Source: a virus
Lineage: Duplodnaviria; Heunggongvirae; Uroviricota; Caudoviricetes
Length of the DNA stretch: 50,938 bases
Direction: 5' to 3' (one strand)
Virus record (IMG/VR): IMGVR_UViG_2636415959_000002
Shown: positions 7,364 to 46,647 of the stretch, in pieces
Numbering within the stretch: the stretch's first letter is position 1
How the letters are laid out: every line of letters begins with the position of its first letter
Position numbers and translations under genes: made by a program
Notes under the pieces: generated by a model
What the model was told of the DNA's origin: nothing
The model's database searches: none
What the model saw: the letters and a program-made list of their open reading frames with translations, nothing else

Positions 7364-8434
7364 ATGGCTAACGCCTGGCTCAGATTATGGCATGACATGC
7401 CAAATGACCCTAAGTGGCGAACAATTGCCAGGGTGTCAGGGCAGCCAATTGCAACAGTGATGGCAGTGTATATCCACCTCTTGGTGAGCGCGTCACGAAA
7501 TGTCACGCGAGGTCACATTGATGTCACGACAGAAGATTTGGCAAGTGCGCTCGACGTGACAGAAGAGGTAATTGATTCAATTTTGCAGACGATGCAGGGG
7601 CGGGTACTTGATGGTGATTTAATCACTGGATGGGAAAAACGCCAGGTGCTTAAAGAGGACAATGGCAATATTTCGCAAACCGCAAAATCTCCTGCAGAGC
7701 GCAAGAGGGCGCAGCGAGAGAGGGAAAGAAAGCGGGAACAAAATGGCGATTGTCACGGCGCGTCACGAAATGTCACGCACATGTCACGACGAGTCACGAC
7801 AGATAAAGATACAGATAAAGATACAGATCAAGAAGATCAAAACACTATGGTCCATGGCGTAAAAAACGCCACGAACCAGGCAGGGGATGTTCAGACCGTC
7901 AATCTTGGTCAGCCAGCAGGCACGACACCGGAAGCCGATTCAGCGTATGCGCTGAAAGCCGATTCGGGCGCTGTGCAGCAGGTGATGACCGCAAGGCCGG
8001 AGCAATCACACCAACTGCAGCAGCCCGAAGCCGATTCCGCCATTCAGCGGGAAGCCGATCGGGTAGTCCCGGAAAACACCGGGCAGTCTGTGGGACGAGT
8101 GGATTATCCGGATGTGTTCGAACAGGTCTGGCGGGAGTACCCGTTGCGTGCCGGAGCAAACCCGAAGAAATCCGCTTTCAGTGCCTGGAAGGCCAGATTA
8201 CGCGAGGGGGTGCCACCAGAGGCCATGCTGGATGGCGTGAGGCGTTACGCAAGATACTTGGCGGCTACCGGGAAAACGGGAACGGAATTTGTTCAGCGAG
8301 CGACGACGTTTTTTGGACCGGACCGGAATTTTGAGAACCCCTGGTTGCTCCCGGTAAGCGGCACGAACAACCAGCGTTGTGTGAATCATATTTCTGAACC
8401 GGATAACGAAATTCCGCCGGGCTTCAGGGGGTAA
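7364..8434 (+). CDS. ydaU: Replication initiation protein, YdaU/DUF1376-like
   Basis: 356 aa from ATG with AAGAGG RBS; N-terminus MANAWLRLWHDMPNDPKWRTIARVSGQPI typical of the YdaU family; iteron arrays lie inside the coding sequence. Confidence 0.65.
   Translation: MANAWLRLWHDMPNDPKWRTIARVSGQPIATVMAVYIHLLVSASRNVTRGHIDVTTEDLASALDVTEEVIDSILQTMQGRVLDGDLITGWEKRQVLKEDNGNISQTAKSPAERKRAQRERERKREQNGDCHGASRNVTHMSRRVTTDKDTDKDTDQEDQNTMVHGVKNATNQAGDVQTVNLGQPAGTTPEADSAYALKADSGAVQQVMTARPEQSHQLQQPEADSAIQREADRVVPENTGQSVGRVDYPDVFEQVWREYPLRAGANPKKSAFSAWKARLREGVPPEAMLDGVRRYARYLAATGKTGTEFVQRATTFFGPDRNFENPWLLPVSGTNNQRCVNHISEPDNEIPPGFRG
7490..7560 (+). repeat. Iteron cluster 1: GTCACG/GTCACA hexamers at about 10-bp phasing
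   Basis: gtcacg at ~7492, 7502, 7523, gtcaca at ~7512, and an inverted copy cgtgac at ~7555. Confidence 0.5.
7750..7832 (+). repeat. Iteron cluster 2 (five GTCACG at 10-11 bp spacing) followed by a duplicated 12-mer, putative replication origin
   Basis: gtcacg at ~7752, 7762, 7772, 7783, 7793; then agataaagatac x2 (~7801-7824) and an A-rich tail; the 19-mer cgtcacgaaatgtcacgc is shared with cluster 1. Confidence 0.5.
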
Positions 8435-8474
8435 GTGTTAATTTCTGGTCATGAGGTAATTTTCAGGAGGGCTT

Positions 8475-8897
8475 GTGGCAAAAGTTTTTACACAAGAAGA
8501 GCGGGAAAAAATTAAAGGGCAGGTTGTTGAACTCGTACGCCAGAGTGGGCGCGAGACGTTAAGACAACTGGAAACTAAAACTGGGGCAACAAAATATCTG
8601 ATGAACGTTCTGGCCAGAGAGCTGGTTGCCAGTGGCGATGTATACAACTCTGGTTACGGGTTATTCCCGTCTGAACAGGCGCGTAAGGACTGGCAAAATG
8701 CCCGTAAAAAGCTCTCAAGGGCAAAGCTGAAGAAACCATCTGCGGTTGATCCGGACCTTATCTGGTCATTACCTGATGGAGAAATACGTCGTTACGACAG
8801 GCGTCATAATATGATTTGTACTGAGTGTCGTAAAAGCGAAGTTATGCAGCGCATATTGTCGTTTTATCAGGGGGATGTTCGGTATTTATTGAAGTGA
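8475..8897 (+). CDS. Hypothetical protein (GTG start)
   Basis: 140-aa ORF with AGGAGG shortly upstream of GTG; basic; CxxC near the C-terminus; no family recognised. Confidence 0.45.
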   Translation: MAKVFTQEEREKIKGQVVELVRQSGRETLRQLETKTGATKYLMNVLARELVASGDVYNSGYGLFPSEQARKDWQNARKKLSRAKLKKPSAVDPDLIWSLPDGEIRRYDRRHNMICTECRKSEVMQRILSFYQGDVRYLLK

Positions 8898-9159
8898 CGA
8901 GATTAAAGTGCATTAGTTCAGATGCAAATTGACATTTTGTGGCACAGGGTAGAGCTAGCGTGGTTGTCCGCTTTGTGCCAACAGCGGACATTATGGAAGG
9001 TCAGAGTTAAAGATTAAAATGGGATGCTGTGTGTTTTCTCCAGGTTTTGCTCTATACCTTTCGGGATACTCCACCGACAGAATACGAAAATCAACATTAT
9101 CAACGGCTCGAAGTGTCTAGATTATCCATGGCAATTCATGGGAAATCCCATCCAACGGC

Positions 9160-10551
9160 TTATGCTTCATGTTGCTTTTTGAGATCGCTTCTAGCATAGC
9201 TCCACTCAATAATGTTGTCGGGTCGTTGCTGATCGAAAAGGATACGGGATTCAATACCATTACCTAAAAAGCTGGTATTCCCATCTACGTAAGAAGCTAT
9301 CCCTTGTGAACCAACACGAAGAATATTTTCTAATGGCTGCTTTGTTCTTGCTGCATCGCTAAGGAGATATAAACCCGGGTACGTTTTGTTAGCACGGTGA
9401 AAAAAAAGTTCATTGTCAAAACACATGACGATGATTATTTGTCCCGACATGAGATCGGAGAGCATTTCAGTTGGCAGATGCAAACTCATAAATGGTCGAG
9501 ACAAAGGGTCAAAGAATGAATCATTTATATTCACAACAGGGCTTTTTATACCGAGACTATCCATCCATCCATTGAAGGCAACAAAGCCCATTTCAGAATC
9601 ACGGTACATACCTAAGAACAAACATTCATCAATAGTATCAATTGCCCAATTTTTTCCTCCGCGAATAATCTCCCACATTTTAACTAAGCGGTGGGTATAA
9701 AATTCAGACGGATGATCTATCTCATTGATTTTAACTTTAGACTGATGAAAGTTGTCAAAGCCCTCGCCAGTATTAATCGCCTCCAGAACATTCATGCCAC
9801 GAATGATTTGCCTTTTTATGCGATTAAATTGCTTAACATCATTATCAGGCATATTGTTAATGAAGTTTTCTTCAAAGTGCGGACATTCTGAGATAACAGA
9901 AAATTCAGCAGCTTCATAAAGCTCATTATTCTTTTCACCTGTTTTAACTTCCACGAGCTGGAAGCCATCCAGTAGATTAAAGGTGACTAAATCTCCCACA
10001 TGAACAAATGTGCTCATGTCAGAGACAATCGCTACGGAGTGTTTGTCCTGGTTGATAAGATCGGCTGCGACCATAGAATCAATTATGTTATCTTCTGATA
10101 GATTGTCATTGCTTGCATTAATAGGTAAACGCCGCAAACTAGAGTGTTCTTCATCAAGAATGCTCCAAATTATTGAGTCAATACAACGGCGAAGAATAAG
10201 AATTTCAAATTTTTTTAAACTTATTTCATCAATACACTTTTCTTTATTTTCTTTATCCTTGTTTCGATGGTGCTCTTTTTTTTCAGTTTCCAATCTTTTT
10301 ATATCTCTCAGCCGAATAATAATCTCAAAAGATATGATTTTTTGTGAGTCTTTCCAATTTTTGAGACAGGTTTCATACTCTGCAAGAAAATCCTCATCAT
10401 TGGAAGGTAGTTCTTGAATTGGATTCCCTCCCCTTATCATTTTGGCAAGTGCATGCATTAAAGATACATAATGAGGCGATAAAATTGTCCAAAACTTCCT
10501 AAACGGTTTGTACTTTTCAAGAAAAGTTGACTCATCAGTATAATTCATCAT
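9160..10551 (-). CDS. Uncharacterised 463-aa protein, downstream partner of the AbiH-like gene; possible PD-(D/E)xK nuclease-like core
   Basis: ORF 9160..10557; likely ATG at 10551 (MMNYTDEST) with GAGG upstream; AT-rich codon usage; segment FVHVGDLVTFNLLDGFQLVEVKTGEKN fits D-x13-E-x-K; no Walker motif or other signature recognised. Confidence 0.6.
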   Translation of the reverse strand: MMNYTDESTFLEKYKPFRKFWTILSPHYVSLMHALAKMIRGGNPIQELPSNDEDFLAEYETCLKNWKDSQKIISFEIIIRLRDIKRLETEKKEHHRNKDKENKEKCIDEISLKKFEILILRRCIDSIIWSILDEEHSSLRRLPINASNDNLSEDNIIDSMVAADLINQDKHSVAIVSDMSTFVHVGDLVTFNLLDGFQLVEVKTGEKNNELYEAAEFSVISECPHFEENFINNMPDNDVKQFNRIKRQIIRGMNVLEAINTGEGFDNFHQSKVKINEIDHPSEFYTHRLVKMWEIIRGGKNWAIDTIDECLFLGMYRDSEMGFVAFNGWMDSLGIKSPVVNINDSFFDPLSRPFMSLHLPTEMLSDLMSGQIIIVMCFDNELFFHRANKTYPGLYLLSDAARTKQPLENILRVGSQGIASYVDGNTSFLGNGIESRILFDQQRPDNIIEWSYARSDLKKQHEA

Positions 10552-10640
10552 AACCAAACCTCATTCCTCTTATCTATTTTCCTCAAGGTATAAAATACCA
10601 GCCTTTTTTACATAATTATAGTTATAATATGAAGTCTCAT

Positions 10641-11510
10641 TCAGATATCTTCATACTGTACGTAAGAAATATTTGAGCCTCTGATACCATAATCTTCTAA
10701 ACTGCCTGATTTTTTCTCACCTCTATATAAAGCAACTATCCATCGAGCATTTTCTTGGATGCTTTTATTTATTTCAGTAAAGTATTCACCGTCAACTTCG
10801 GCGAGCGAGTGGCCTAAAACGATGACCTCGTCCACATTTTTAAGCGATGAGAAAAAAACGTTTTCTTCTTTAATTATGTCTTCGCTGGGCTTGAATGTAT
10901 TACCGAAGTATTCGTTTATTCTGTCGTATGCCTCTGCTATTCTTGTATCTTGATCCGGTCCTATATATGGATTTAGTGACTTTTCCACCCTAAAACTATG
11001 ACCAAGTATGAGATCGTCATCGTAACTACAATTGCCGTGAATATGTATGATTTGCTCGTCTGGAACGGCATAGATCTGCTGCAAGGTATTTGTATAATTA
11101 AATGAAAAATAGATGCTTTCTCTTGGTATGGGCGGGATGTATTGCTTAGGATTGTAAGCATCGGCTATGTTAATCCCTTTAACCCAATCAGCGAATTGCT
11201 CCTTCAAACGAGCTGACAGCATTTGTGTGATTTTATTTACTTCATATTGGTAATCGTGATGATAAGCATCGCTCCAATCATCGGTATTGTATGAAGCCAA
11301 AAATATCTCACTGTTTTGAAGGATAAGCTCATAATCAATTTCACCTAAAGCATTTTCTAACTCATTCCACTCGTCCCCAGCAGGAATGTATTCTTCTATC
11401 GCGTCATATAGATCTTGGTCATTTTTTTCTACATACGACTTAAAGTGCTTGTATCCTGTTGGTAAGCCATGACGCATGTCAAATCCATTTCCTATTATGT
11501 AAAGCCTCAT
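10641..11510 (-). CDS. AbiH-family (abortive infection) protein
   Basis: 289 aa from internal ATG (MRLYIIGNGFDMRHGLPTGYKHF) with AAGGGA RBS; the IIGNGFD-x-HGL-x-T-Y motif is the N-terminal signature I recall for the AbiH family; AT-rich. Confidence 0.7.
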   Translation of the reverse strand: MRLYIIGNGFDMRHGLPTGYKHFKSYVEKNDQDLYDAIEEYIPAGDEWNELENALGEIDYELILQNSEIFLASYNTDDWSDAYHHDYQYEVNKITQMLSARLKEQFADWVKGINIADAYNPKQYIPPIPRESIYFSFNYTNTLQQIYAVPDEQIIHIHGNCSYDDDLILGHSFRVEKSLNPYIGPDQDTRIAEAYDRINEYFGNTFKPSEDIIKEENVFFSSLKNVDEVIVLGHSLAEVDGEYFTEINKSIQENARWIVALYRGEKKSGSLEDYGIRGSNISYVQYEDI

Positions 11511-11968
11511 TGTTTTTCCCTTAGTCGAATTGTATAAAAATACTAACATGGCCTGCTCCACGTTGACTACTATCCCCTCCTTTGAGTAATGCCTTCATCA
11601 GATGTAACAACATTTGCGAGCTTCCACAGTTCGCTCAAAGCGGACTAGAAGGTTAGCTTGCGTCGGACTTGGCGTATTTAAAGAAGTGCTGGTGGAGACT
11701 GGTTGTTGTGTTCCATTTCTACAGAACAAAATCACAGAAACTATACCCAATAGTTATATTGAATCAATGATGAGACAGCCTCATATTTATCAGGACTGGT
11801 GTACGTCCAATACAGGAGGTTGTCGTGCTGGTTCTCAAATGTGCGCTAGCTATTGCGGCTGTAATGGCAATTTATTGTCTTGCTGTTGTTCTTACGGATC
11901 GCCTTTCTGATTGATTTTATATTGGCGAGGTGACGTGAGTTAAGTAGAATTGCTGCGGGTGCTTGAGG

Positions 11969-12004
11969 CTATCTGCCTCAGGCATGAACACCAAAGGCAG
12001 ATAG
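11969..12004 (+). promoter_or_regulatory. Perfect 10-bp inverted repeat in the hokD 5' leader (probable mRNA fold)
   Basis: ctatctgcct ... aggcagatag separated by a 16-nt loop, about 120 nt upstream of the hokD ATG. Confidence 0.3.
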
Positions 12005-12125
12005 AGAAAAGCCCCAGTTAACATTACGCGTCCTGCAAGACGCTTAACATTAATCTGAGGCCAATTTCATGCTAGACACATGTAGGTTAGCCTCTTACGT
12101 GCCGAAAGGCAAGGAGAAGCAGGCT

Positions 12126-12281
12126 ATGAAGCAGCAAAAGGCGATGTTAATCGCCCTGATCGTCATCTGTTTAACCGTCATAGTGACGGCACTGGTAACG
12201 AGGAAAGACCTCTGCGAGGTACGAATCCGAACCGGCCAGACGGAGGTCGCTGTCTTCACAGCTTACGAACCTGAGGAGTAA
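12126..12281 (+). CDS. hokD: Hok-family type I toxin (HokD/RelF-like), 51 aa
   Basis: MKQQKAMLIALIVICLTVIVTALVTRKDLCEVRIRTGQTEVAVFTAYEPEE: single TM helix plus conserved Hok C-terminal motif; AGGAG RBS; in-frame upstream extension (ORF from 12069) is reminiscent of mok. Confidence 0.85.
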   Translation: MKQQKAMLIALIVICLTVIVTALVTRKDLCEVRIRTGQTEVAVFTAYEPEE

Positions 12282-12288
12282 GAGACCA

Positions 12289-12374
12289 GGCGAGGGAGAA
12301 ATCCCTCGCCACCTCTGATGTGTCAGGCATCCTCAATGCACCCGCACTTAACCCGCTTCGGCGGGTTTATTTTA
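12289..12374 (+). terminator. Two 3' hairpins after hokD, the second followed by a T-run (rho-independent terminator)
   Basis: ggcgaggga-gaaa-tccctcgcc (~12289-12310) and acccgc-ttcg-gcgggt followed by ttatttta (~12351-12374). Confidence 0.45.
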
Positions 12375-12628
12375 TCTGTAAATATTTTTATAAAAATAAT
12401 GCCCACACACAGCATAAAACAAAAAGTATCACAGATAAAAAAGGAGCGTAATGTGCAGATTTGTTGTTTTCCATATTTACTCACTTTAACATAATCAATA
12501 TTGATATGGTTGTTGTTTTGGTGGTTTCAAACGAGATGTTATGGTGATCTGGTAAAATTGCATAACATTAAAATTTAATTTATCTAATCGCTTTTAATAA
12601 TAAGCGTTGTGTTTATCCCAACAATCTG

Positions 12629-13018
12629 TTGTTTGACTTTTATTCCATTAATGTAGGGGCTTTACACTGGAACCAGTTTATTTATACTTTATACGCCAGC
12701 CTGAACAACTGGCACCTGCTGCGCCAGCAGAGACAACCGATGGCGCACGATACCAAATTACACAATTCTGATGATTCTGCCGTCTTTGCCAGCAGGTGCG
12801 GACGGCGTTTTCATGCATTCAAATCGGACTGGTTCCAGCATCCACCATGCACTGAAGAGCAGGCTGAATGGATAATTCAGTGTTACCGCAGGCGCGGATA
12901 CGAGGTTAAAAAAGCCCTTAGCCTCGACTACCGTCACTGGATAATCTCAGTCAGATTGCCTTACTCCGAACGCCCACCGCGTCCGTCCCGTACATTCCAG
13001 CAACGCCTCTGGAGGTAA
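12629..13018 (+). CDS. Hypothetical protein (position corresponds to rem of Qin-type prophages)
   Basis: 129-aa ORF ending 2 nt before the ydfU-like start; true start may be an internal Met; no motif recognised. Confidence 0.4.
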   Translation: MFDFYSINVGALHWNQFIYTLYASLNNWHLLRQQRQPMAHDTKLHNSDDSAVFASRCGRRFHAFKSDWFQHPPCTEEQAEWIIQCYRRRGYEVKKALSLDYRHWIISVRLPYSERPPRPSRTFQQRLWR

Positions 13019-13019
13019 C

Positions 13020-14069
13020 GTGCGGGTATTACTTCGACCTGTTCTGGTACCGGAACTCGGGCTGGTGGTCGTTAAGCCGGGCCGTGAATCCATGCCGGTA
13101 TTCCACAATACCCGGGTACTGGTGGAGCCGGAACCGAAAAGCATGCGTAATCTGCCGTCCGGGGTCGTTCCTGCCGTTCGCCAGCCGCTGGTGGAAGACA
13201 AAACATTGCTGCCGTTTTTCAGTAACACACGGGTAATTCGTGCTGCTGGTGGTGCTGGTGCATTGTCTGACTGGCTGTTGCGCCATATTAAATCCTGCCA
13301 GTGGCCACACGGCGATTATCATCACAGCGAAACCGTTATTCACCGATATGGTACCGGCGCAATGGTGTTGTGCTGGCACTGCGACAACCAGCTGCGTGAC
13401 CAGACATCCGAATCACTCGAGCAACTTGCTCATCAAAACCTGTCAGCATGGATGATTGACGTCATCGGTCACGCAATAAGCGGTACGCAGGAGCGTGAAT
13501 TATCTCTGGCTGAATTATCCTGGTGGGCGGTCCGCAATCAGCTGGCGGACGCGCTACCGGAAGCGGTATTACGTCGCTCGCTGGGATTACCAGCGGAAAA
13601 AATCTGCTCGGTGTACCGCGAAAGCGACATCGTACCGGGAGAGCAGACCGCCACCAGCATATTGAAACAGCGCACAAAAAATCTTGCACCGTTGCCTCAC
13701 GCCCACCAGCAACAAAACCCATCACAGGAAAAGACGGTGGTAAGCATCACCGTTGATCCAGAGTCTCCGGAATCTTTCATGAAGCTGCCTAAACGTCACC
13801 GGTGGGTTAAGGAGAAATACACACGCTGGGTTAAGACACAGCCGTGTGCTTGCTGCGGTATGCCAGCCGACGATCCGCATCATCTGATTGGTCACGGGCA
13901 GGGCGGAATGGGAACAAAAGCACATGATCTCTTTGTGTTGCCTTTGTGCAGAAAGCATCACAACGAGCTGCATACGGATACAGTGGCATTTGAAGAGAAG
14001 TATGGCTCCCAACTGGAGCTGATATTTCGTTTTATCGATCGCGCGCTGGCAATTGGCGTACTGGCGTAA
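13020..14069 (+). CDS. ydfU: DUF968/YdfU-like protein with Cys/His-rich C-terminal motif
   Basis: 349-aa ORF (GTG start after GGAGG); C-terminal CACCGMPADDPHHLIGHGQGG...CRKHHNELH; size and position match YdfU of Qin-type prophages (recalled). Confidence 0.65.
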   Translation: MRVLLRPVLVPELGLVVVKPGRESMPVFHNTRVLVEPEPKSMRNLPSGVVPAVRQPLVEDKTLLPFFSNTRVIRAAGGAGALSDWLLRHIKSCQWPHGDYHHSETVIHRYGTGAMVLCWHCDNQLRDQTSESLEQLAHQNLSAWMIDVIGHAISGTQERELSLAELSWWAVRNQLADALPEAVLRRSLGLPAEKICSVYRESDIVPGEQTATSILKQRTKNLAPLPHAHQQQNPSQEKTVVSITVDPESPESFMKLPKRHRWVKEKYTRWVKTQPCACCGMPADDPHHLIGHGQGGMGTKAHDLFVLPLCRKHHNELHTDTVAFEEKYGSQLELIFRFIDRALAIGVLA

Positions 14070-14082
14070 GTGGAGAACGAGC

Positions 14083-14835
14083 ATGAACCTTGAAGCCTTA
14101 CCAAAATATTACTCCCCAAAATCTCCAAAATTGAGCGATGACGCTCCAGCGACAGGCACCGGTTGTTTAACAATTACGGATGTAATGGCAGCGCAGGGGA
14201 TGGTGCAGTCGAAAGCACCACTTGGGTTGGCCTTATTTCTGGCAAAAGTTGGTGTTCAGGACCCTCAGTTTGCGATTGAAGGCCTGCTAAATTACGCGAT
14301 GGCACTGGATAACCCGACATTGAACAAATTGAGTGAAGAAATCCGGTTACAGATTATTCCTTACCTCGTGAGTTTTGCCTTTGCTGATTACTCCAGGTCT
14401 GCGGCAAGTAAGGCTCGCTGTGAGCATTGTTCAGGTACGGGATTTTATAATGTATTGCGCGAAGTGGTGAAACACTACAGACGCGGGGAATCTGTAATCA
14501 AGGAAGAATGGGTGAAGGAACTATGTCAGCATTGCCATGGTAAGGGCGAAGCCAGCACAGCGTGCAGAGGGTGTAAGGGTAAAGGGATTGTTCTGGATGA
14601 AAAAAGAACCCGGTTTCATGGCGTACCGGTATATAAGATTTGTGGGCGTTGTAATGGAAACCGGTTTAGTCGTTTACCGACCACGCTGGCACGACGTCAT
14701 GTCCAGAAGCTGGTACCAGACCTGACCGATTATCAGTGGTATAAGGGGTATGCGGACGTCATTGGTAAACTGGTAACAAAGTGCTGGCAGGAAGAAGCAT
14801 ACGCGGAAGCGCAATTGAGGAAGGTGACGAGATAA
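14083..14835 (+). CDS. quuQ: Late-gene antitermination protein Q (phage 21/82-type zinc-finger Q)
   Basis: 250 aa from ATG with GGAG RBS; multiple CxxC pairs (CEHCSGTGFYN, CQHCHGKGE, CRGCKGKG, CGRCNG); located upstream of the lysis cassette. Confidence 0.75.
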   Translation: MNLEALPKYYSPKSPKLSDDAPATGTGCLTITDVMAAQGMVQSKAPLGLALFLAKVGVQDPQFAIEGLLNYAMALDNPTLNKLSEEIRLQIIPYLVSFAFADYSRSAASKARCEHCSGTGFYNVLREVVKHYRRGESVIKEEWVKELCQHCHGKGEASTACRGCKGKGIVLDEKRTRFHGVPVYKICGRCNGNRFSRLPTTLARRHVQKLVPDLTDYQWYKGYADVIGKLVTKCWQEEAYAEAQLRKVTR

Positions 14836-45111: not shown

Positions 45112-46647
45112 ATGAACGATACCTCTTCTGACGACATCCTTCTGCTGAAACAGCGCCTGGCCGAACAGGAAGCGTTGATCCACGCCCTGCAGGAAAAGCT
45201 GAGCAACCGGGAACGCGAAATAGACCATCTGCAGGCGCAACTGGATAAGCTGCGCCGGATGAACTTCGGCAGTCGTTCCGAAAAGGTATCCCGCCGTATC
45301 GCGCAAATGGAAGCTGACCTGAACCTGCTGCAGCAGGAAAGCGATACGCTGACCGGCCGGGTGGATGACCCGGCAGTGCAGCGCCCGCTGCGTCAGACCC
45401 GCACCCGCAAACCGTTCCCTGAGTCACTCCCACGGGATGAGAAGCGGCTGCTGCCGACTGAGCCGTGTTGCCCGGAGTGCGGTGGTTCGCTGAGTTACCT
45501 GGGTGAGGATGCCGCCGAACAGCTGGAGCTGATGCGCAGCGCCTTCCGGGTTATCCGGACAGTCCGTGAAAAGCATGCCTGCCGTCGGTGCGATCGCATC
45601 GTTCAGGCCCCGGCTCCTTCGCGCCCCATCGAACGGGGGATCGCCGGACCGGGGCTGCTGGCCCGAGTGCTGACCTCAAAGTATGCAGAGCACACACCGC
45701 TGTATCGCCAGTCGGAGATCTATGCCCGCCAGGGTGTAGTGTTGAGTCGTTCTGTACTGTCGGGCTGGGTGGATGCGTGTTGTCGTCTGCTGGCACCGCT
45801 GGATGAAGCCCTTCAGCACTATGTCCTGACCGACGGCAAACTCCATGCTGACGATACGCCTGTCCCGGTGCTGTTGCCGGGCAATAAGAAGACGAAGACC
45901 GGGCGCTTATGGACGTACGTTCGAGACGACCGCAACGCCGGATCAGCGCTGGCCCCCGCAGTGTGGTTCGCTTACAGCCCGGACAGAAAAGGTATCCACC
46001 CTCAGACCCATCTTGCAGGCTTCAGTGGCGTACTGCAGGCTGATGCCTACGCCGGGTTCAACGAGCTCTACCGCGACGGCCATATAAAGGAAGCCGCGTG
46101 CTGGGCCCATGCCCGCCGAAAAATCCACGATGTTCACGTCCGTACCCCGTCAGTCCTGACGGAGGAGGCGCTGAAACGGATCGGCGAGCTGTATGCCATC
46201 GAGTCGGAGATCAGAGGTAAAAGAGCAGAGGAACGGCAGGCAGTCCGGCACCAAAAAGTGCTGCCGCTGCTGGCGTCACTGGAGGGGTGGCTGCGGGAGA
46301 AACAGAAAACCCTCTCAAGGCACTCAGAACTGGCGAAGGCGTTCGGGTATGCGCTGAACCAGTGGCCGGCGCTGATCCGCTATGCAGAAGATGGCTGGGT
46401 GGAGGTGGATAATAACATTGCCGAAAACGCCCTACGACGGGTCAGTCTGGGGAGAAAAAACTGGCTGTTCTTCGGCTCGGATCATGGTGGTGAGCGCGGT
46501 GCGTCACTGTACAGTCTTATCGGGACGTGCAAATTAAACGGCGTGGATCCGGAACGCTATCTGCATTATGTACTTGATGTCATCGCCGACTGGCCTGTGA
46601 ACCGGGTGGGTGCTCTGCTCCCGTGGCGGGTTACTCTGCCTGCCTGA
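45112..46647 (+). CDS. IS66-family transposase (DDE)
   Basis: 511 aa with N-terminal leucine zipper, CxxC...CxxC zinc ribbon (CPECGG...CRRCD) and DDE core. Confidence 0.9.

Follow-up and report, generated by a model that had tools for sequence, protein, structure and literature searches.

The window, by which we mean the whole 50,938-nucleotide stretch of DNA analysed here, is a nearly complete lambdoid prophage (with Q, lysozyme, terminase, portal, capsid, tape measure and J), and in its early-right region, between the replication genes and Q, lies a small gene of the Hok toxin family. In the Qin prophage of Escherichia coli K-12 the corresponding gene, hokD, follows relB and relE, an order that the sequence-only reading of the window had stated and that we confirmed; here the two genes are missing. 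The locus raises the question of whether a toxin gene has been left behind by the loss of relBE, has been drawn into a defence island, or belongs to a toxin-antitoxin system of its own. We conclude that positions 11922-12374 very likely form a complete hok/sok-type type I toxin-antitoxin cassette of the hokD/hokW allele group, a discrete module in the lambdoid prophage (Table 1), and that this is an ordinary, already known kind of hok/sok locus.

The 51-residue open reading frame that had been assigned to the Hok family by eye belongs there: it is identical to HokD, covers the whole of the Pfam HOK_GEF model (PF01848, E=1.2e-23) and matches PHROG 251, 'MokW-like host killing' (E=2.8e-33). Its match to the NCBIfam Hok subfamily (E=5.7e-13) scores 48.5 bits, below the curated cut-off of 73. 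Small Hok/Gef membrane toxins, the group in which it falls, have about 50 residues, an N-terminal transmembrane helix and a conserved cysteine. The UACG motif at Tyr47 is invariant across all aligned loci, R1 included, and in K-12 hokD mRNA editing from Tyr to Cys has been reported at a level of 6% (PMC12214031).

Table 1. Elements of the hok/sok cassette, in window coordinates.
Feature	Position	Strand	Basis or remarks
hok promoter, TTGGCG-17 nt-TAGAAT	11922-11950	+	consensus scan
hok mRNA, about 418 nt	11957-12374	+	start from alignment to the R1 hok mRNA 5' end and from the Rfam model; end at the intrinsic terminator
tac-like 5' element	11957-11968	+	three mutually exclusive partners: 11975-11985 (nascent hairpin), 12331-12343 (fbi), 11995-12015 (tac stem)
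5' hairpin of nascent transcript, metastable-hairpin equivalent	11959-11985	+	folding
Perfect 10-bp inverted repeat	11969-11978 / 11995-12004	+	core of the 5' stem
Predicted Sok RNA, about 72-74 nt	12004-12077	-	start from -10 spacing and R1 alignment
Long leader hairpin	12017-12054	+	folding; its complement makes up Sok's body and terminator hairpin
mok Shine-Dalgarno, GAGG	12057-12060	+	8 nt before the mok ATG; columns invariant in 71 loci
Hypervariable patch round the invariant mok ATG	12062-12083	.	target of the Sok 5' tail, and stretch between Sok -10 and Sok start
mok-like ORF, 70 aa, in frame with hok	12069-12281	+	ORF list
Sok promoter: -35 TTGCCT (12112-12107), 17-nt spacer, -10 TAACCT (12089-12084)	12084-12112	-	alignment to R1 and Sp5
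hok Shine-Dalgarno, AGGAG	12112-12116	+	about 9 nt before the hok ATG; K-12 similarity begins here
hok CDS (hokD-type), 51 aa	12126-12281	+	protein is K-12 HokD, WP_000813254.1
Tyr47 codon TAC within UACG, TadA A-to-I editing motif	12264-12267	+	sequence
3' UTR hairpin, 9 bp, perfect	12289-12297 / 12302-12310	+	repeat search
3' fold-back region	12318-12343	+	12318-12330 with the mok start region; fbi-like 12331-12343 with the 5' end
Intrinsic terminator of hok mRNA	12350-12374	+	hairpin 12350-12367, then T run

The toxin gene is preceded by a long structured leader homologous to that of the hok family. Rfam RF01794 matches 11957-12131 with 119.9 bits (gathering score 59), over model positions 1-157 and on the hok strand. 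The match ends at the hok AUG and the model thus describes the sense leader, not Sok itself, so that the strand of a match to this family, although it is named 'sok', should not be taken as the strand of the antitoxin. Other, sub-threshold Rfam matches between 9000 and 15000 (ceN48, sR55, rsmX) were dismissed as chance, rsmX being only the terminator hairpin. The -10 hexamer of the hok promoter is conserved in 71 unique loci, and the -35 hexamer sits just left of the module boundary (about 11937), where Sp5 and PPompW have related TTG.C. hexamers.

Alignment to hok/sok and relBEF loci and folding of the leader and 3' region had been proposed as checks on the sequence-only reading. The former recovered the full hok/sok architecture, with a K-12 match from 12112 on, and the latter a strongly structured RNA: the full-length 418-nt transcript has a minimum free energy of -178 kcal/mol (z=-8.5 against shuffles), its 5' end being paired with its 3' end. 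A repeat search recovered the perfect 10-bp repeat noticed by eye, inside a longer, imperfect one of 21 nt (11958-78 / 11995-12015) whose core it makes up, and both 3' hairpins described in that reading are present, the second being terminator-like. The fold-back helix between tac and fbi (12 bp, 11957-68 with 12331-43) is part of the minimum-energy structure, in which 12069-12081 is also paired with 12318-12330. The nascent segment 11957-11990 folds separately at -19.6 kcal/mol (z=-5.2), and in the 3'-trimmed mRNA (z=-6.4) the 5' stem forms with 11995-12015 and the mok start lies in a hairpin loop, 12072-12078 being a 7-nt apical loop. By prediction, then, the 5' end has alternative pairings, in the nascent hairpin and in the tac stem after 3' trimming, that would leave the mok start and Sok's target accessible.

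The regulatory elements are nearly invariant among the 71 unique loci (pi 0.007-0.05) and the flanks are unrelated. Across these loci, 96.3% of cells were paired, as against 34-41% when the partners were slid. Compensatory change was found at 13 pairs versus 4.4 expected from shuffles, a control that is inflated by the close kinship of the loci. Two such pairs lie in the 5' stem (helix 2, A-U to G-C and C-G to U-A), three in the long leader hairpin of a shorter, PPompW-type variant (helix 5), three in the terminator (helix 18) and one in the 3' UTR hairpin (helix 17), whose other pairs vary on one side only. The tac-fbi helix is paired in 100% of the 71 loci yet never varies, and so gives no covariation evidence.

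The in-frame upstream extension that had been likened to mok is borne out as a frame with its own Shine-Dalgarno sequence, starting in the leader and overlapping the hok start, and its translation would be coupled to that of hok. Its ATG is invariant, and in 71 of 71 unique loci the frame reaches or passes the hok start. It does so through three different frame arrangements, and for this reason only the translation of mok, not its product, appears to be conserved.

Whether a sok-like antisense RNA accompanies the toxin had been set aside as undecidable by eye, and a generic promoter scan likewise reports no Sok promoter, the -10 matching consensus at 3 of 6 positions. Alignment does give an answer: opposite the mok start is a promoter that is base for base the sokW promoter of phage Sp5 and that aligns position for position with the corresponding stretch of R1, which we take to be the R1 Sok promoter, TTGCGC/TATCCT. 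The RNA predicted from it would start with about 9-10 nt of single-stranded 5' tail, continue into a long hairpin and finish U-rich at the 3' end; its computed folds have energies between -29 and -30 kcal/mol (z=-5.3 and -5.6). At the level of sequence, the locus thus has a cis-encoded antisense gene, and a sok-like RNA is very probably present.

The closest characterised relative is hokW-sokW of the Stx2 prophage Sp5 (VT2-Sakai) in E. coli O157:H7 Sakai, also a lambdoid prophage, with 94% DNA identity over 11937-12353. Both loci have the leader and an in-frame mok of 70 aa; their Sok promoters and spacers are identical, and so are the elements that pair at the 5' and 3' ends. They differ at 4 of 51 toxin residues, all near the C-terminus, and in their terminators, similarity stopping at 12353; the Sp5 cassette, moreover, follows ant/ea22-like genes, whereas that of the window lies between the replication genes and Q. 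For hokW-sokW, Hok is toxic and Sok acts as antitoxin, both RNAs are detected by northern blotting, and mutation of the sokW -10, the element altered according to the published mutagenesis primers, abolishes protection; on prophage induction Sok is lost and Hok is made, and phage release is twofold higher with hokW-sokW (Takada et al., 2021, PMC8621323).

The architecture and element order are also those of the founding member, hok/sok (parB) of plasmid R1. The predicted 5' end of the hok mRNA reads GGGUGCUUGAGGC in the window, and that of R1 GGCGCUUGAGGC, the Sok promoters are positionally homologous, and the region from the Shine-Dalgarno sequence to hok is conserved, as is UUACGAA near the 3' end of the coding sequence; the window leader matches the Rfam family model end to end. 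In R1, mok overlaps hok out of frame, unlike the in-frame mok of the window. The toxin is only about 40-45% identical to R1 Hok (44% for HokW; PMC8621323), the Sok hairpin is longer in the window by 16 nt relative to the Rfam consensus, and the cassette is on a prophage rather than a plasmid. Activation by a 3' exonuclease, unstable Sok, cleavage by RNase III and killing once Sok is lost are known for R1 and in part for hokW-sokW.

The sequence elements, the predicted alternative pairings, the homology and the population distribution come from the present analysis. Together with features borrowed from R1 hok/sok and the 94%-identical hokW-sokW, namely the transcript ends, processing at the 3' end, the instability of Sok, the part played by RNase III and toxicity in this setting, they suggest the following mechanism. 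The promoter TTGGCG-17-TAGAAT would yield a stable hok mRNA some 418 nt long, its 5' end kept in a local hairpin as it emerges. In the finished mRNA, pairing of 11957-68 with 12331-43 and of 12069-81 with 12318-30 would exclude both ribosomes and Sok. Slow 3' trimming would strip off the fold-back element, the 5' end would switch to 11995-12015, and the mok start would become exposed in the loop at 12072-78. As long as transcription continued, an unstable Sok, about 72 nt long and read on the minus strand from 12077 to around 12004, would bind the mok loop through its 5' tail, blocking translation of mok and hence the coupled translation of hok, and the duplex would be marked for RNase III. 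Were the supply of Sok to end, possibly through loss of the DNA, shut-off of host transcription or prophage induction, the mRNA pool would be translated and the 51-aa Hok would depolarise the inner membrane.

One part of the cassette departs from its general invariance. In the patch around the mok ATG, nucleotide diversity is 0.369 (pi), as against 0.016 at hok third codon positions; 18 variants were counted among 81 loci and 22 among 119, and the window allele, CCAATTTCATGCTAGACACATGT, differs from that of Sp5 hokW-sokW, CTCAATCCATGCTGAACACATGT. It is possible, if somewhat doubtful, that the patch, as Sok 5' tail and target loop, is a specificity determinant under diversifying selection that lets cassettes reside together without cross-silencing. 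Because the same DNA encodes both partners, each substitution in the patch alters toxin mRNA and antitoxin RNA together, and new 'immunity types' could therefore arise freely. If so, up to ten near-identical hokD/hokW cassettes could occupy one E. coli genome with no Sok silencing the hok of another prophage. If all had one Sok type in common, each copy would lose its value for addiction or for sensing induction. Co-resident copies differ in the patch in 3 of 4 same-genome pairs, a figure from an IMG/VR sample of only these 4 pairs and one to be set beside the roughly 89% of random pairs that differ too. Were a specificity switch confirmed, the patch would offer a small natural case in which antitoxin and toxin diversify together.

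With the cassette so described, the missing relBE genes take on a different meaning. The earlier observation that no RelB- or RelE-like frame lies upstream holds for the whole 50.9-kb window, in which tblastn of the K-12 proteins found neither (best E-values 0.37 and 2.9), and in place of relB and relE directly upstream of a leaderless hokD the window has the full leader. The absence is no anomaly but the common state, and seems odd only with K-12 as the reference: of 5426 complete E. coli genomes, 4292 have the form with the leader, which is found at 9498 places, and 1198 have the K-12-type relE-hokD junction, the leader-bearing form being about eight times commoner by places. K-12 Qin hokD (relF, third gene of relBEF) encodes an identical Hok protein, is 98% identical through the 3' UTR, fbi region and terminator (12112-12368), and shares the chromosomal site, the Qin (ydfJ) site of E. 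coli, and the downstream genes ydfU and Q. That K-12 has relB-relE-hokD at this same site would be expected if relBE had been deleted from such an operon in the window's ancestry, and yet we find such a secondary loss hardly credible. The match to K-12 sets in at 12112, no more than 14 nt ahead of the hok ATG, and K-12 hokD lacks the hok promoter, leader, mok and Sok gene, its Shine-Dalgarno sequence directly following relE so that it is driven by the relBE promoter; the window has all four elements, which a deletion could not plausibly restore, and it has the far more frequent form. Since K-12 shares sequence only from 12112 onward, K-12 hokD is, judged on this alignment, the truncated derivative and the relBE-hokD arrangement the exception; hokD of K-12 has been called inactivated by rearrangement (PMC12214031). 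A prophage (L045) with the order orphan leader, IS, flxA, ydfV, relBE and hokD coding sequence likewise speaks against loss of relBE, and points to an origin of the K-12 type by disruption of a complete hok locus. A single clean insertion is not established as the route, the leader and hokD coding sequence of L045 overlapping by 15 nt, more than a typical target-site duplication.

The divergent upstream neighbour is an AbiH gene on the minus strand, as had been supposed (Pfam AbiH, E=8e-69; PADLOC AbiH, E=1.8e-27), and its adjacency invites the idea that hok/sok and the AbiH + 465-aa cassette form one anti-phage island, with Hok as an abortive-infection effector released when a phage shuts off host transcription. 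Defence genes are common in prophage slots, and R1 hok/sok on a high-copy plasmid lowers T4 plating (cited in PMC8621323). Still, we regard such an island as very unlikely. The hok module shows no consistent co-occurrence with the AbiH and 465-aa cassette, which is found in 118 genomes (64 complete) against 4292 for the hok leader; its boundaries near 11937 and 12368 are sharp, its neighbours differ across about 80 prophages, and elsewhere it adjoins unrelated cargo, including a DUF4209 protein in ATCC 25922 and a 444-aa protein in phage Tritos. A survey found hok not enriched near defence systems, at 12% of hok loci versus 9.4% expected at random (bioRxiv 10.1101/2025.08.07.668861). The adjacency is thus real but gives no sign of a functional link, and it looks incidental, a variable-cargo slot beside a discrete module; hok alone may nonetheless make an independent contribution against phages. 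An intact but inert relic, transcribed, silenced by Sok, never killing in nature and persisting by hitch-hiking with the prophage, also seems to us unlikely, if less so. Chromosomal hokA, hokB and hokC gave neither post-segregational killing nor activation by rifampicin (as summarised in bioRxiv 10.1101/2025.08.07.668861), for which reason a stabilising role is not guaranteed, and K-12 hokD itself is without regulatory elements. Such inertness does not fit with near-invariant regulatory elements between unrelated flanks, with structure maintained through compensatory changes, or with the activity of hokW-sokW and its effect on phage release, and copies disrupted by IS elements (L086 and L045) suggest that intact ones carry a cost or activity worth inactivating.

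We suggest that the complete cassette most likely serves, selfishly, to stabilise the prophage, and that it further aids lysis and phage release on induction, as has been reported for hokW-sokW. In about 80 related loci hok and the early genes that flank it are collinear, and since the cassette is co-oriented with the early-right operon, we infer that read-through on induction could oppose the antisense Sok promoter. As the Sp5 cassette lies elsewhere in its phage genome, the induction-linked role may not transfer.

The finding as stated matters little, this being a textbook cassette of about four of five E. coli genomes. Annotation, however, marks only the 51-aa coding sequence, as 'hokD', and leaves promoter, leader, mok and Sok unannotated, so that complete and truncated hokD loci look alike in databases. 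The cassette also marks one edge of a Qin-like slot of variable cargo, and could help to locate new prophage-borne defence genes. Upstream of it, a 98-aa frame (11614-11910) has no Pfam family, and an unannotated 29-aa frame (11825-11914) is a candidate membrane protein; searches of this 29-34-aa frame against Pfam, PHROGs and NCBIfam gave nothing meaningful, and the only phage copies that tblastn brought up, in Tritos, Evi and mEp460, are themselves unannotated. Strain 503025 matches the window at 100% over 11562-12420, its prophage being deleted beyond 14069, a point after which the window continues with 32 kb of late genes.

The Hok reading frame of the window is part of a complete hok/sok-type cassette, a kind of locus that is already known. 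Its 51-residue product matches the Pfam HOK_GEF model over the entire length of the model (E=1.2e-23) and is identical to HokD of K-12 (WP_000813254.1), and mok, the reading frame that overlaps the hok start, runs in frame with it from an upstream ATG, so that both the Hok-family toxin and the mok-like extension described in the sequence-only reading hold.

Features of the hok/sok cassette and its upstream region (positions in the window)
Feature	Position	Strand	Details
Small ORF	11825-11914	+	MLVLKCALAIAAVMAIYCLAVVLTDRLSD; 29 hydrophobic aa, GTG start, AGGAGG SD
hok promoter	11922-11950	+	sigma-70-type, TTGGCG-17-TAGAAT; promoter scan
hok transcript	11957-12374	+	418 nt, predicted
Perfect 10-bp inverted repeat	11969-11978 / 11995-12004		within longer imperfect repeat
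mok ORF	ATG at 12069	+	70 aa, in frame with hok; ORF listing
Predicted Sok promoter	12112-12107 and 12089-12084	-	TTGCCT, 17-nt spacer, TAACCT; position-for-position alignment with R1
hok ORF	12126..12281	+	51 aa; ORF listing
3' hairpin	12289-12310
Terminator-like hairpin	12350-12367		followed by T run

The start of the hok transcript was placed near 11957 by the position of the promoter, and GGGTGCTTGAGGC at that point aligns with the 5' end of the hok mRNA of plasmid R1, the source of the founding hok/sok (parB) locus; a BLAST check of the R1 sequence used found it, with 100% identity, on thousands of IncF plasmids. The Rfam model RF01794 ('sok') matches 11957-12131 at full length with 119.9 bits (gathering score 59). 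This match is on the hok strand and the final model positions fall on the SD and AUG of hok; RF01794 therefore models the leader of the hok mRNA, not the antisense RNA, and in reading hits to this 'sok antitoxin' family the strand of the match should not be taken for the strand of the antitoxin RNA.

The transcript folds with z=-8.5 against shuffled controls, and three mutually exclusive pairings are predicted for its 5' end. At full length, 11957-68 pair with 12331-43, and 12069-81, the mok start region, with 12318-30. When the last 46 nt are removed, the 5' end re-pairs with 11995-12015 in a stem that has the inverted repeat as its core, and the mok start is presented in a hairpin with a 7-nt loop (12072-12078). 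Folded by themselves, the 34 nt at the 5' end give a strong local hairpin (-19.6 kcal/mol). The perfect repeat and the two 3' hairpins picked out by eye were all located. We take the three pairings to be the counterparts, in the R1 model from Gerdes-laboratory work, of the metastable hairpin, the fbi-tac interaction (between the 3' fold-back element and a 5' element of the mRNA) and the tac stem. The same correspondence is reflected in the discussion of PMC8621323. Over 71 unique related loci, all close relatives, 96.3% of cells in the full-length structure were paired versus 34-41% with the partners slid, and 13 pairs showed compensatory change versus 4.4 expected from shuffles; the long-range tac-fbi helix is invariant across loci and is supported by conservation, not covariation.

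Whether a sok-like antisense RNA is present had been left undecided. Alignment of the window to R1 and to the Stx2 phage Sp5/VT2-Sakai picks out TTGCCT-17-TAACCT on the minus strand, identical to the promoter of sokW; the R1 stretch aligned to 12112-12084 is the Sok promoter of that plasmid. The predicted RNA would begin with about 9-10 unpaired nt, continue into a long hairpin and close with a U-rich stretch (z between about -5.3 and -5.6). The hokW-sokW locus of Sp5 is 94% identical to the window cassette over 11937-12353, and the 29-bp promoter segment is the same in both. HokW is toxic and its locus is self-protecting unless the sokW -10 is mutated, the mutagenesis primers altering precisely the TAACCT element; protection is restored by sokW in trans, and northern blots detect both RNAs (Takada et al., PMC8621323). 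On prophage induction sokW RNA is lost and HokW is produced in a RecA-dependent manner, and deletion of the locus halves phage release (PMC8621323). Given the 94% identity, the identical promoter and the published function of sokW, it is very likely that a Sok RNA is encoded in the window, with a predicted start near 12077.

Searches by tblastn with the K-12 RelB and RelE proteins over the whole 50.9-kb window found neither (best E 0.37 and 2.9), in agreement with the claim that no such ORF lies near hok. This relBE-less configuration is the common one: a leader-only query (11940-12111) was found in 4292 of 5426 E. coli genomes, spread over 9498 places with a median of 2 and a maximum of 10 per genome, and the K-12 relE-hokD junction, at least 80% covered, in 1198 of 5426. 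Among 80 IMG/VR prophage loci with an identical HokD protein the leader is present in 77 and the K-12 junction motif in two, L041 and L045, the same two in which tblastn found relBE. In K-12 Qin, hokD does follow relB-relE. There the end of relE sits directly upstream of the hok SD region, and similarity to the window begins only at 12112, 14 nt before the hok ATG, so that K-12 hokD is without promoter, leader, mok and Sok, which agrees with its reported inactivation by rearrangement (PMC12214031).

Two of the related prophage loci look like intermediates in the decay of the hok locus. In L045 (480-4250) an orphan leader with 97% identity as far as 12127 precedes an IS, flxA, ydfV, relB, relE and the hokD coding sequence, in that order; the two halves of its hok locus overlap by 15 nt, and homology to K-12 begins within the transposase gene, in its 3' end, at the K-12 ydfW remnant. 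In L086 (2700-4160), an IS is inserted between 12117 and 12112. These disruptions point to an origin of the K-12 type by disruption of a complete hok locus, whatever the exact event may have been. The transposases are of 446 aa (L045) and 362 aa (L086), and the L086 insertion has a 6-bp overlap.

The divergent upstream neighbour of hok, previously called AbiH-like, does belong to the AbiH family (Pfam 8e-69, PADLOC 1.8e-27); the 465-aa partner beyond it (9160-10557, minus strand) had no match in Pfam, PHROGs, NCBIfam or PADLOC. This pair was found in only 118 E. coli genomes (64 complete), at 99% identity or more. When 8000-14100 was compared by BLAST with about 80 related prophages, the edges of the hok module proved sharp and recurrent, near 11937 and 12368, and the module is collinear with the flanking early genes in every case. 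Conserved flanks enclose it, with a DUF977 gene to the left and the ydfU region, from about 12693, to the right, and inside these flanks the DNA on either side of hok is unrelated; left-hand cargo elsewhere includes a DUF4209 protein (ATCC 25922) and a 444-aa protein (phage Tritos). A survey found hok to be enriched in prophages and not near defence systems (12% versus 9.4% expected; bioRxiv 10.1101/2025.08.07.668861). Since the AbiH cassette is in few genomes, the neighbours vary and the survey agrees, the best reading of the adjacency is that cargo landed next to a constant hok module, and not that the two are paired in function. Qin-like lambdoid prophages seem to have a hotspot here for accessory or defence genes. 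The variable-cargo slots, between the DUF977 gene and the ydfU region, span 8993-11937 and 12368-12723; here the left one holds AbiH and the 465-aa protein, and other prophages hold a methyltransferase fragment, among others.

Within the left slot, 1407 E. coli genomes conserve a block of about 300 bp (11630-11937) together with the hok module, regardless of the reverse-strand cargo to its left. Transcription of the small ORF and of the cargo genes could start from its divergent promoter-like sites (plus strand 11731-11760, minus strand 11767-11740). The unannotated 29-aa ORF stops 42 nt short of the hok transcript start; all 35 of the related copies are intact, and no family match was found in Pfam, PHROGs or NCBIfam. 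A 34-aa relative (52% protein identity) occupies the same position in prophages with otherwise unrelated DNA there, and Sp5-type phages have a 27-aa transmembrane ORF at that place.

The mok frame equals the hok frame in most loci. In eight unique loci a 2-nt deletion shifts mok so that its TGA stop overlaps the hok ATG, and in a P1-like phage mok is in yet another frame. Since the content of mok is not conserved but its ATG is invariant, the pattern fits a role for mok translation alone, not for its product. The shifted loci (for instance L011, L021 and L030) have a different coupling geometry inside one allele group: the deletion falls directly after the mok ATG (aligned to 12072-12073), the resulting ORF has 19 codons and overlaps the hok start as ATGA, and the Sok -10 and -35 are TAATCT and TTGACC. 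In the toxin itself, the UACG motif for TadA editing that contains the Tyr47 codon is invariant in all aligned loci; 6% editing to Cys has been reported for K-12 hokD mRNA (PMC12214031).

Only one lead may be worth following further, a hypervariable patch at 12062-12083 in an otherwise almost invariant locus. Over the 19 positions flanking the mok ATG pi is 0.369, compared with 0.009 in the CDS, 0.016 at the third codon positions of hok and values of 0.007-0.05 for the regulatory elements. The patch has 18 alleles among 81 loci and 22 among 119 prophage loci, and 17 of the 119 share that of the window. The patch corresponds to the predicted Sok 5' tail and its target loop, and because both RNAs come from the same DNA, any change in it keeps hok mRNA and Sok complementary. 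This looks like diversification of recognition specificity, and the patch may be a specificity determinant that lets several hok copies coexist.

We adopt the classical hok/sok mechanism for the cassette: a fold-back-inhibited hok mRNA would be activated by 3' trimming, and Sok would block translation of mok and thereby of hok. The analysis shows the sequence elements, alternative folds and homology; processing of the mRNA, turnover of Sok, cleavage by RNase III and killing would be as in R1 and hokW-sokW. Prophage addiction plus help in lysis on induction is the most likely role; lysis and morphogenesis genes are present in this prophage. Since hok points the same way as the early-right operon, read-through after induction would oppose the Sok promoter, which could account for the loss of Sok on induction. 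An independent anti-phage effect is possible by analogy with R1 hok/sok, which acts against T4 (cited in PMC8621323).

The window covers a lambdoid prophage of the Qin (ydfJ) site that is nearly complete. From left to right it carries integrase and excisionase, dicB/ydfD, a repressor pair, a replication gene, the DUF977 gene, the AbiH cassette, hok, ydfU, Q and lysis genes, then a late region of terminase, portal, capsid, tape measure and J, with IS66 (45112-46647) and pin at the end; it terminates inside an IS1. Among complete genomes, that of strain 503025 (NZ_CP025892.1) is closest in the hok region; it has lost about 32 kb of late lysis and morphogenesis genes that the window retains (14069-46807), and in their place Q is followed by blc, a YbgA-family gene, an AraC-family fragment and IS1.
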